From the IMG/VR virus record IMGVR_UViG_638341089_000007: 13,148 nucleotides of DNA; one strand, given 5' to 3'. The stretch is from a virus (taxonomy: Monodnaviria; Loebvirae; Hofneiviricota; Faserviricetes; Tubulavirales; Inoviridae). The notes under the pieces were generated by a model that made no database searches, was not told the origin of the DNA, and saw only the letters and a program-made list of their open reading frames with translations. How positions within the stretch are numbered: position 1 is the stretch's first letter; each line of letters begins with the position of its first letter. Shown here piece after piece: positions 3,749 through 5,044 of the stretch. The position numbers and the translations under genes were made by a program.

Positions 3749-4453
3749 TCATAATGCTGCGGGAGCCACGTAATAGACAATCACAAATACAGCTAATGCT
3801 CCACCTGCTCTTACCCAGTTTGATATTTTGACTTCTATAAACCCGGGTATAAATGAGACTACCCCAGCAACTGCTGCTGAAAGAATTATTCGAAAGAAAG
3901 TGTATTGAAAGTTCGTTGGATTAGGTATAAATATTGCGATTATTATAAAAAGAATAACAAGTAAAATGCCAAAGCTAAATGCCGCTATTCTCTCGTGTGC
4001 TTTTGTCAATTTTTCTTTTCCTTTATTGTCAAATCCATATACTGGCATATCTTCATTAACGAAAAGATTCCTTATTTCTTTTGCAGAACGTTTGTCATGG
4101 GCTTTTACTATCCTTTGCATTGAAGCAAAAGCAGTGGAGCTTGGTTTAATACTATTATCATTCATTACCTCTCTATATTTTTTGTAATGAGCTAAGATAA
4201 GGTGAAGAACATCAATGCATGTTTCTGCAAGCCATTGATTCCATTGAGTATTATTTAATTCATCTACTGTTCTGTTATGTGCAGCGCAGTGTTCTAAATA
4301 GCCGAAAAAACTGTCTCCACATGAATTCACGGTATCAAAATCACATTTACCAGATAGGTAACACTCTAATGACTCAGTATATTTTTCATATAAACGCTCA
4401 ATTTCTTTTTTTTGATTATCAATGATACCGTGAACATCCATATCTGATTTCAC
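3749..4453 (-). CDS. Hypothetical 234-aa protein: Cys/His-rich N-terminal soluble domain (~155 aa) plus 2-3 C-terminal transmembrane helices; prophage accessory gene
   Basis: ORF-track ORF; start ATG overlaps the stop of the upstream 91-aa ORF (TGATG); hydrophobic C-terminus (AAFSFGILLVILFIIIAIFIP, FFRIILSAAVAGVVSFIPGFI, GGALAVFVIVYYVAPAAL); AT-rich; no family recognised. Confidence 0.65.
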   Translation of the reverse strand: MKSDMDVHGIIDNQKKEIERLYEKYTESLECYLSGKCDFDTVNSCGDSFFGYLEHCAAHNRTVDELNNTQWNQWLAETCIDVLHLILAHYKKYREVMNDNSIKPSSTAFASMQRIVKAHDKRSAKEIRNLFVNEDMPVYGFDNKGKEKLTKAHERIAAFSFGILLVILFIIIAIFIPNPTNFQYTFFRIILSAAVAGVVSFIPGFIEVKISNWVRAGGALAVFVIVYYVAPAAL

Positions 4454-4728
4454 TATCTTTTTTGTTGAGTGTTATTTGACTGGGATTGAATTTTTGCCAA
4501 TAGCGAACTTGCTTTCGATGTATTCAATCCATTACAAATCATTCTTGTAATCGGTTTTTTGTAAATTCGATGAACGATATTTTCAACTTCAGTGATGCTT
4601 TCATTGCCACTGAGTTTTTTTATCTCATTGAACATCTCCTCCAATTGTTCATTTGTTGGATGCCATTTGATTATATCTAATTCTTCCTCTAATGCTTTTT
4701 TAAAAAGGAAAACCTGAAAAGATAACAT
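4453..4728 (-). CDS. Hypothetical 91-aa protein, prophage accessory operon
   Basis: ORF-track ORF with AGGAAAG Shine-Dalgarno upstream; start is 1 nt after the stop of the upstream ORF (TAAtATG); C-terminal tail GLNTSKASSLLAKIQ is paralogous to the tail of the upstream small ORF. Confidence 0.6.
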   Translation of the reverse strand: MLSFQVFLFKKALEEELDIIKWHPTNEQLEEMFNEIKKLSGNESITEVENIVHRIYKKPITRMICNGLNTSKASSLLAKIQSQSNNTQQKR

Positions 4729-4729
4729 A

Positions 4730-5044
4730 TTACTTTCCTTGTGTTGGTTTAGTAGTGGATTGTTGAGCTTTTTCTAAAAGCCTTTTTGCTTTAGATGTGT
4801 CCAAACCATCTTGGGCAAAGCCTTGTTGCTTATCATTCTGTTTTTGTTCACTTTTTTTTGGCGTATTCATCAGTATATACTTTGACTCGTTTTGTTTATC
4901 TCGATGACTTACTTTTTGTTTAAGTTTTGCACAAACTAGAACGTGCAGTGTTGGTAATACTGCACGTTTGTACCATTCGTGGTACTTAATCCTTTTGTTT
5001 GGCAGACATGAGATCTTCTGCTGCATCTTTAGAGTAGTTATCAA
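4730..5044 (-). CDS. Hypothetical small protein, 46-104 aa depending on start; prophage accessory operon
   Basis: Maximal ORF from TTG at 5044; ATG alternatives at 5026 (overlaps the 60-aa gene) and 4870 (46 aa, leaves hairpin 4940-4968 intergenic). None has a clear Shine-Dalgarno, so the start is uncertain. C-terminal tail GLDTSKAKRLLEKAQ. Confidence 0.45.
   Translation of the reverse strand: MITTLKMQQKISCLPNKRIKYHEWYKRAVLPTLHVLVCAKLKQKVSHRDKQNESKYILMNTPKKSEQKQNDKQQGFAQDGLDTSKAKRLLEKAQQSTTKPTQGK
4940..4968 (-). promoter_or_regulatory. Perfect inverted repeat ACGTGCAGT-N9-ACTGCACGT; candidate operator or attenuator/terminator
   Basis: 9-10 bp perfect palindromic arms (4941-4949 / 4959-4967) just downstream of the stop of the RHH-like gene on the - strand; no strong T-tract follows. 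Confidence 0.4.

Follow-up and report, generated by a model that had tools for sequence, protein, structure and literature searches.

A shared C-terminal tail in adjacent small proteins of a mobile cargo cassette from an Escherichia coli filamentous prophage

Introduction

Filamentous phages of the CUS-1/YpfPhi type carry a short accessory segment between the repressor gene at the rstR position and the left attachment site (attL), with open reading frames (ORFs) that are transcribed against the structural genes: YPO2271/YPO2272 in YpfPhi and orf1/orf1a in CUS-1. This attL-adjacent segment differs between the two phages, its function is unknown, and its ORFs were described as having 'no homologs in the databases' (PMC4266046). 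The present analysis concerns the same slot in a stretch of DNA of 13,148 nucleotides (nt), IMG/VR virus record IMGVR_UViG_638341089_000007 (Inoviridae), referred to below as the window. Here that slot, from the repressor gene to attL, is occupied by a three-gene cargo cassette on the minus strand, encoding proteins of 46, 91 and 230 amino acids (aa) that are called the small, medium and membrane proteins. In CUS-1 of UTI89, by comparison, the slot holds ORFs of 140 and 369 aa. In contrast to that description of the YPO ORFs, homologues of the present cassette are spread over many taxa and also occupy contexts other than inoviruses; the two are likened by position and published description.

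A second point of comparison is provided by the hotspots of P2-like phages (old/tin and Z/fun) that carry transmembrane (TM) effectors. The likeness consists of a homologous pair of medium and membrane genes in a P2-like phage, a small number of genes that are swapped as a unit, and the presence of a small membrane protein. In known systems, the membrane proteins of prophage-borne anti-phage cassettes are believed to be suicide effectors (PMC9122126). In contrast to the P2-like hotspot cassettes, no protein of the present cassette matches a PADLOC model. Moreover, control by tandem paralogous small proteins with a common tail has, to our knowledge, not been described for the P2-like hotspot systems.

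Two further systems resemble parts of the cassette. MicroProteins, such as plant LITTLE ZIPPER and animal Id, are truncated paralogues that possess only an interaction motif, and the 46-aa protein likewise keeps only an interaction-type helix and is co-expressed with its 91-aa relative. The parallel is one of logic alone: the sequences are unrelated, the setting is a bacterium and its phage, and the competition is a proposed one. The RsiV-type anti-sigma factors share with the membrane protein family a helical N-domain, predicted to be cytoplasmic, membrane segment(s), a C-terminal DUF3298 in some Pseudomonas homologues and small partners alongside. They differ in that the membrane protein has three TM helices rather than one, that no anti-sigma domain or sigma factor was detected, and that the E. 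coli protein ends right after the third helix, TM3.

The Shared Tail of the Small and Medium Proteins

A sequence-only reading of the window had proposed that two adjacent small proteins share a paralogous C-terminal tail as the result of a local duplication. Both ORFs are found on the minus strand as claimed, one of 91 aa at 4453-4728 and one of 104 aa at 4730-5044; the latter contains the 46-aa gene (Table 1). The DNA strings on which the proposal drew lie at 4788-4809 and 4511-4532 and are identical at 17 of 22 positions. At the protein level, NGLNTSKASSLLAKIQSQSNNTQQ and DGLDTSKAKRLLEKAQQSTTKPTQ give an ungapped alignment, in register when counted from the C-terminus, with 11 of 24 residues identical. 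BLASTP assigns this pair an E of 2e-4 with composition adjustment, and the Smith-Waterman score of 49 compares with 28.2 +/- 5.1 for shuffled sequences (14 of 5000 shuffles reach 49). A local DNA alignment of the tails is identical at 34 of 47 positions, a result reached by 1 of 2000 shuffles. Taken alone, the single-pair alignment is suggestive but not overwhelming, and the decisive support comes from the profiles of relatives. When orthologues are added, profile-profile comparison of the small and medium families gives a probability of 92% and an E of 6.5e-7 over 28 columns.

The paralogy is wider than had been claimed, and the duplication holds only as an old tandem event, not as recent copying. 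The small and medium pair, each member with its own version of the tail, is kept in E. coli, Dickeya, Pectobacterium, Proteus and Cedecea, and two complete pairs are present in locus L004 and in locus L009 of Cedecea. Because the separate tail versions are conserved across genera, the likeness of the tail DNA is attributed to selection on the peptide, and recent gene conversion is rejected as its source. In more distant genomes, two to three full-length medium-family paralogues stand in tandem. Between paralogues of one locus, the tail (20 columns) is 55% identical (417/765) as against 23% (294/1267) for the N-domain. Judged from these sequences, the 46-aa and 91-aa proteins are paralogues from an ancient duplication, and the small one is a trimmed paralogue kept by selection.

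The extent of the trimming can be seen from the family models. The 91-aa protein contains the tail motif as GLNTSKASSLL and the 46-aa protein as GLDTSKAKRLL. The latter protein, which lacks the W-x-P-[TS]-x-x-Q N-domain, matches the hidden Markov model of the medium family only at positions 61-88, and the enterobacterial upstream paralogues as a group (E. coli, Dickeya, Pectobacterium, Proteus, Cedecea and L004) match the family model only at positions 57-89. The upstream paralogue of the Enterobacterales has thus evidently lost its N-domain, with the tail alone left behind a K/Q-rich stretch. Within that tail, the core DGLDTSKAKRLL is invariant in 7/7 small-family sequences, with flanks that fall to 45% identity.

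The Medium Family and Its Membrane Protein Partner

As defined here, the medium family consists of unnamed proteins of 79-117 aa corresponding to phrog_6502. A word-indexed search returned eight clusters of relatives of the 91-aa protein, and a profile search found 31 representatives among 1.84 billion proteins. All relatives are stand-alone proteins of 62-117 aa, except for one repeat protein of 1232 aa. The hallmarks of the family are the N-terminal W-x-P-[TS]-x-x-Q, found in the 91-aa protein within IIKWHPTNEQL, and the C-terminal G-[LIVM]-[DN]-x-[ST]-x4-L-L, which lies within about 25 residues of the C-terminus. Among seven close members, the longest invariant runs, GLNTSKAS and LLAKI, are both in the tail. 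The AlphaFold2 model of the 91-aa protein has a mean predicted local distance difference test score (pLDDT) of 71.6 and consists of a small alpha/beta N-domain, a hinge (CNGLN, residues 65-69) with pLDDT <50 and a separate helix at residues 70-84. No specific resemblance to this model was found among solved structures. Three homologues of the 91-aa protein (P0001, P0005 and P0006) are labelled 'S-(hydroxymethyl)glutathione dehydrogenase' in NCBI/UniRef, a name that is a propagated misannotation, as it cannot apply to a 91-aa protein that lacks such a domain.

The loci scanned comprised 24 found by means of the membrane protein together with those found by means of the 91-aa protein. At nearly every one, the gene of a membrane protein homologue is immediately preceded, on its own strand, by one to three tandem medium-family members. 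The window shows this arrangement, as do L002-L007, L009-L029, L035 and L036; nothing of the medium family matched in L030, and the match in L031 was marginal (E 0.0016). Locus L028, from Pseudomonas inefficax, contains the whole system twice (2609-3389 and 5321-5863), about 2.5 kb apart. It also includes a stop-free ORF of 181 codons with two tandem medium-family matches, possibly a natural fusion of two paralogues. In the window, the three genes are tightly packed: the small and medium genes meet at TAA-t-ATG, and the ATG of the membrane gene follows the TAG of the medium gene after 11 nt.

Residues 3-138 of the 230-aa protein form a helical N-domain, and three TM helices are predicted beyond it (147-171, 177-195 and 207-228). 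The AlphaFold2 model of the whole protein has a mean pLDDT of 80, and the N-domain of long helices exceeds 90. Orthologues begin with MD[IV]HGII, and an extension to GTG 4453 is not conserved. With 57 homologous clusters, the family is wider than that of the 91-aa protein, and its TM module is also joined to unrelated soluble domains. In the two such proteins that were examined, P0049 and P0062, no medium or small gene lies nearby. From the charge distribution, judged by inspection, and the DUF3298 of some homologues, the topology is predicted to be N-in/C-out, with the N-domain in the cytoplasm. The DUF3298 (E 4e-8 to 1e-7) lies beyond TM3 in an extra C-terminal region of about 200 aa in two Pseudomonas loci (L019 5845-7254 and L022 5845-7257). 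This domain is normally extracytoplasmic, which hints that the region is an extracytoplasmic sensing part.

Database annotation adds little to this description. PHROGs contains matches for the 46-, 91- and 230-aa proteins and for the 60-aa product of the adjacent putative repressor gene, all of them in families of unknown function. For the three cassette proteins, nothing usable came from Pfam, NCBIfam or PADLOC. Listings for a P2 response-regulator-binding domain (E 0.0055), RecX (E 0.0035) and Csx27 (E 0.0056) were rejected as far below curated cut-offs. The RefSeq accessions of the cassette proteins are not mentioned in the literature searched, and the literature on inovirus cargo and defence gave nothing specific. 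The proteins are nameless in Pfam, NCBIfam, PADLOC, Rfam, the PDB and the searched literature.

Distribution of the Cassette

The cassette was present in 22 of 5426 complete E. coli genomes, always 100% identical and in one to three copies, and the phage backbone in 48 genomes. Strains F11 and MS 200-1 are carriers. The same backbone slot receives at least four cargo sets in E. coli (Table 1), and a 140-aa multi-TM protein recurs in three of these four variants. Other cargo cassettes sit at L001 20467-21672, L032 1818-3457 and L036 1719-3208. The 91-aa ECs_2282-family protein of the second cargo set shows weak PADLOC matches to PDC-S64 (E 5e-7) and to the zinc-ribbon regions of Cas12f/DruE.

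Outside E. coli, the cassette again adjoins inovirus genes in Dickeya and Pectobacterium, and homologues are carried on plasmids of Cronobacter, Cedecea, Pseudomonas, Salmonella and others. In a P2-like phage, the medium and membrane pair lies on the opposite strand between the tail-fibre-assembly and tail-sheath genes, a slot that we take to be the Z/fun locus. Defences have been reported at the Z/fun locus (PMC13586616). Among 130 neighbouring ORFs, GajA of the Gabija system (best E 3e-206) was found in three loci and gop-beta-cII proteins in three loci. OLD-type TOPRIM ATPases were also found in three loci and are probably the same proteins as the GajA matches, and KAP NTPases, HEPN-Toprim proteins, integrases and transposases each occurred in two. 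Some of the loci with defence neighbours are probably related to one another, and the three GajA loci are assumed to be related Pseudomonas loci. The association of the cassette with defence is guilt by association, not proof.

Proposed Function and Alternatives

The best explanation of the whole, to which we assign a probability of roughly 0.55, is that the shared tail would be a docking helix controlling a membrane effector in a cassette for conflict between genetic elements. All paralogues would share a single binding site, for which the helical N-domain of the membrane protein encoded beside them, on the cytoplasmic side, is the likeliest candidate. This choice of site is suggested by P0049 and P0062, in which the TM module bears other domains and the medium and small partner genes are missing, and it fits the predicted N-in/C-out topology. 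The 46-aa tail-only protein could then compete for the site or co-occupy it and in this way tune the control that the 91-aa protein exerts over the membrane protein. The cassette as a whole would be an accessory module for mobile-element conflict, its membrane protein being the effector of phage exclusion or abortive infection, and would be expressed from the prophage by read-through or re-initiation past a two-hairpin element upstream of the small gene. The conflict reading is drawn from the swapped cargo sets, the slot in the P2-like phage, the plasmid locations and the GajA and gop-beta-cII neighbours.

A number of observations weigh against this explanation. The tail helix of the 91-aa model has a pLDDT of only 52-63, and it might merely pack on the N-domain of its own protein. 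In the KE48 cargo variant, the medium-family protein has a degenerate tail motif, and the Shine-Dalgarno sequence of the small gene in E. coli is poor. As for defence, PADLOC-DB 2.0 gave no matches for the 46- and 91-aa proteins and only Csx27 (E 0.0056) for the 230-aa protein, which was read as membrane-segment noise; defence neighbours occur in only a minority of loci; and the homologues that bear DUF3298 suggest a role in sensing or anchoring rather than killing.

A broader claim is possible and is put forward tentatively. The cassette may represent a previously unrecognised exclusion or defence family borne by phages, plasmids and islands, in which one to three paralogous small proteins would control a three-TM effector by way of a C-terminal docking helix that they share, with the enterobacterial 46-aa 'microprotein' competing for the same site. 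We know of no description of a competing tail-only microprotein as a regulatory principle in bacterial immune systems.

The tail could instead be an oligomerisation helix through which the paralogues, the tail-only protein included, form a hetero-oligomeric bundle, with the membrane protein acting downstream or independently. Such a bundle would account for the loci in which two or three paralogues keep their tails alike, and the non-enterobacterial tail (LNTLLALAIQ) is very hydrophobic, as for a buried helix; the possible fusion of two medium-family domains in the Pseudomonas locus L028 points in the same direction. However, the presence of a single paralogue in the P2-like phage, in a Microbulbifer locus and in the KE48 variant means that a hetero-oligomer is not obligatory, and the medium family strictly adjoins the membrane protein that bears the N-domain. 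As a replacement for the docking helix, oligomerisation is doubtful.

It is rather unlikely that the cassette is a signalling or sequestration device of the anti-sigma-factor type, in which the membrane protein would hold the small regulators by their tails and free them on an envelope signal, making the system regulatory rather than a defence effector. The small proteins contain no DNA-binding or sigma-like domain, the E. coli membrane protein has no extracytoplasmic domain, and the cassette occupies accessory slots of phages and neighbours Gabija and gop-beta-cII genes. What speaks for such a device is the DUF3298 (E 4e-8) that some Pseudomonas homologues possess beyond TM3, and the fact that the three-TM module also anchors unrelated domains. 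In RsiV-type anti-sigma factors, DUF3298 belongs to the extracytoplasmic sensor part.

A nucleic-acid-binding role for the tail is highly improbable. Under this proposal, the tail would be a helix-hairpin-helix (HhH), SAP-like or Csm2/Cas11 small-subunit-like motif with which the small proteins bind phage DNA or RNA. The proposal is based on the pattern G-hydrophobic-x-x-S-x-A-x-x-L-L, which resembles the second helices of HhH and SAP motifs, and the best PDB sequence match of the family profile is Csm2, at 'NGLTTSKLRNLLELI'. Pfam models of HhH, SAP and Rho_N-type motifs gave no match, and the likeness to Cas11/Csm2 covers only a 25-residue stretch, with an E of 0.073 for the whole sequence and 0.64 for the stretch. 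Both the Csm2 match (E 0.07) and a 9-residue coincidence, 'QDGLDTSK', in two unrelated PDB chains were rejected as chance.

The Start of the Small Gene

The upstream ORF had been assigned three candidate starts, TTG 5044, ATG 5026 and ATG 4870, and a palindrome at 4940-4968, and all of these are present. Translation from TTG 5044 would overlap the 60-aa gene (4986-5168) by 59 nt, and from ATG 5026 by 41 nt. The ambiguity is settled in favour of the third option, ATG 4870, which gives 46 aa and leaves the palindrome intergenic. The corresponding Met is the first residue of the orthologues from Dickeya zeae, Pectobacterium versatile, Proteus mirabilis, Cedecea and one further genome. These orthologues are 42-55 aa long, and their frames meet an in-frame upstream stop after 3-18 codons, as against 58 open codons in E. 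coli. A 68-aa database homologue also begins with MNTEKN, and the 46-aa form is the one annotated in RefSeq. When the small gene (141 nt) of E. coli is compared with that of Dickeya, 5, 3 and 18 sites differ in codon positions 1, 2 and 3, respectively, and the dN/dS, the ratio of nonsynonymous to synonymous substitution rates, is 0.08-0.10. This bias and this ratio indicate that the frame is under strong purifying selection.

The region upstream of ATG 4870 behaves differently. Strain Combat2C1 has a second tandem prophage copy whose sequence agrees fully with the window as far as 4938 and then continues into unrelated cargo, and the 'long' frame there stops after 43 codons. In P0010 and P0011, from other genomes, gene callers joined this upstream frame to the gene of a membrane protein that is unrelated. 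From the comparison of these sequences, the extension of the 98/104-aa versions is a chance-open frame, open only in this backbone. It is barely credible that the long form, of 98 or 104 aa from ATG 5026 or TTG 5044, is a real product overlapping the repressor gene. The frame is open, and databases do use it, in phrog_6875 (98 aa) and in the partial NCBI entry P0009 (101 aa), but no orthologue outside this backbone has the extension, the same upstream sequence closes behind other cargo, the region is a structured element whose compensatory substitutions would alter the peptide, and RefSeq has the shorter form. Since the evidence favours ATG 4870, the phrog_6875 profile and the NCBI entry are considered over-extended. 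Finally, the weak Shine-Dalgarno sequence in E. coli and the shortness of the single-pair alignment (24 residues) would suit a nonfunctional ORF, whether as the decaying remains of a duplicated 3' end or as a chance likeness in K/Q/S-rich sequence, but this is scarcely tenable given the low dN/dS and strong third-position bias, a 12-residue block invariant in seven sequences from several genera, small ORFs conserved in position and in length range (42-68 aa), the intact duplication of the small and medium pair in two genomes and the profile-profile E of 6.5e-7.

The Two-Hairpin Element at the Cargo Junction

The intergenic palindrome forms one part of a two-hairpin element (Table 1). Identity with the other cargo variant stops at 4938, beside this element, which marks the junction of the phage backbone and its interchangeable cargo modules. 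At 88% identity, the element recurs in about 86 other E. coli genomes. Among these is UTI89, where the repressor differs (helix-turn-helix (HTH) type) and the cargo differs as well. Across filamentous prophages, its identity is 88-100% next to different repressors (60 aa as against a 148-aa HTH protein), and it also occurs at L032 3501-3558 and at about L001 21700-21760. Hairpin 1 possesses two compensatory base pairs (GTACCA/TGGTAC as against GTCTCA/TGAGAC). Relative to shuffled sequences, the folding z-scores are -3.4 as RNA and -4.7 as plus-strand DNA. A terminator scan did not call the hairpins a terminator, the T-run being weak, and a search of Rfam found nothing for the element, as three listed matches all fell far below their gathering scores. 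Both strands fold well, and the candidate roles are a leaky terminator or attenuator, an RNA-stability element, a single-stranded DNA (origin) element or a recombination junction.

Genomic Setting

The window represents the hipA/dif region of an E. coli chromosome, with tandem copies of a dif-integrated filamentous prophage of the CUS-1/YpfPhi type. Positions 3650-4849 recur at 11949-13148 with 100% identity and an offset of 8299, so that the prophage forms a tandem array with a period of 8299 bp. Integration at dif is indicated by the adjacent hipA gene and by the dif-like sequence that opens each tandem copy. A full canonical 28-bp dif was not found within the window; GGTGCGCATAATGTA followed by CGACTCGTTATGTTGAAA looks like a dif-like site with a longer and different central region. 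The mechanically called hipA ORF has 459 aa owing to an in-frame upstream ATG that overlaps hipB, and RefSeq HipA has the usual 440 aa.

The plus strand carries a gene II/X replication gene and genes for a single-stranded DNA-binding protein, coat proteins, a receptor-binding protein rich in glycine, a Zot-type assembly ATPase and the pIV secretin, as judged from the ORFs, the nucleotide match of pIV and the RefSeq annotation of the identical region. This gene set, together with the divergent repressor gene, matches the described organisation of a CUS-1/YpfPhi-type inovirus (PMC4266046). In a nucleotide search of the phage collection, the pIV gene of the window matched pIV genes of IKe and Erwinia phages, and this was the only similarity to sequenced phage records: none matched the cassette at the DNA level, which indicates that no sequenced phage record carries it. 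The 60-aa gene is transcribed divergently from a gene II-type replication gene at 5296-6390. Its position is that of YPO2273/rstR in YpfPhi/CUS-1 (PMC4266046). The sequence-only reading had called its product a ribbon-helix-helix (RHH) protein; no Pfam, NCBIfam or PDB sequence match identifies it as such, and its size and N-terminal strand-like pattern are compatible with RHH.

Additional features were observed elsewhere in the prophage. A 474-aa ORF at 7050-8474 is probably a pIII-like receptor-binding protein, in which eight 15-nt repeats at 7793-7957 encode a Gly-rich linker; such linkers are typical of filamentous-phage pIII. An inverted repeat at 11179-11227, with 20-nt arms that are 90% complementary and a 9-nt loop, starts in the last bases of the pIV secretin ORF (9825-11183) and runs beyond it. 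Ff phages have their packaging-signal hairpin at the position just after the pIV gene, and by analogy the repeat is a candidate packaging signal or terminator. On the side of the right attachment site (attR), there are two small ORFs, at 11253-11561 (102 aa) and 11679-11912 (77 aa), the second with CxxC...CxxC spacing, which suggests a zinc ribbon. YPO2280a/YPO2281, listed without known function in the YpfPhi review, are probably their counterparts. At the left end of the prophage, downstream of the 230-aa gene, a palindromic stretch at 3684-3735 shows weak sub-threshold Rfam matches on both strands and is probably a terminator-like hairpin or one resembling a repetitive extragenic palindrome (REP).

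Table 1. Features of the cassette, its prophage and the alternative cargo of the same slot (positions in the window).
Feature	Position	Strand	Remarks
Membrane gene, 230 aa	3749-4441	-	Start ATG 4441; match to phrog_5814 (230 aa)
Medium gene, 91 aa	4453-4728	-	Compact N-domain, low-confidence hinge (CNGLN), C-terminal helix TSKASSLLAKIQSQS; match to phrog_6502, function unknown
Medium-gene tail-coding segment GLNTSKASSLLAKIQSQSNNTQQKR	4456-4530	-	Aligns to the tail of the small protein
Small gene, 46 aa MNTPKKSEQKQNDKQQGFAQDGLDTSKAKRLLEKAQQSTTKPTQGK	4730-4870	-	K/Q-rich N-terminus, then shared C-terminal helix motif; RefSeq WP_001335097.1
Small-gene tail-coding segment GLDTSKAKRLLEKAQQSTTKPTQGK	4733-4807	-	Core DGLDTSKAKRLL invariant
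Spurious 5' extension (98/104-aa versions)	4871-5044	-	Not coding; covers 3' end of the repressor gene and the two-hairpin element
Two-hairpin element	4940-4985		Hairpin 1 at 4970-4985, hairpin 2 (palindrome of the sequence-only reading) at 4940-4968; directly past the repressor stop codon
Putative repressor, 60 aa	4986-5168	-	First gene of the leftward unit; match to phrog_2503, function unknown
hipA	2194-3573		Upstream of the prophage
Dif-like sites GGTGCGCATAATGTA	3652-3666 and 11951-11965		At the start of each tandem copy, then CGACTCGTTATGTTGAAA
Second cassette copy	12048-13148	-	Membrane gene 12048-12740; medium gene 12752-13027; small gene incomplete, from 13029 to the end of the window
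Cargo set 1			46 + 91 + 230-aa cassette
Cargo set 2			140-aa TM protein + 91-aa ECs_2282-family zinc-ribbon protein + 159-aa protein
Cargo set 3			140-aa TM protein + 369-aa protein (UTI89)
Cargo set 4			140-aa TM protein + divergent medium/membrane pair (KE48)

Conclusions

The finding is modest in itself. The gene model of the small protein is corrected to 46 aa from the 98-aa phrog_6875 and 101-aa NCBI forms in public resources, and the case illustrates that a conserved non-coding element beside a swap junction can yield a misleading open frame. Behind it stands a mobile cassette with an unusual design, a shared tail and a tail-only paralogue, which we rate among the prophage accessory or conflict cassettes with a membrane protein; there is a meaningful chance that it represents a new defence family. 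Three 'hypothetical proteins' of a prophage in extraintestinal E. coli thereby become a defined and widely travelling cassette with a recognisable signature. The tail-only paralogue, which is under strong purifying selection, also provides a natural experiment on the regulation of larger relatives by small proteins. Phages of the CUS-1/YpfPhi type have been reported to affect fitness in infection (PMC4266046), and the cassette offers a concrete candidate for the function of their attL-proximal cargo.

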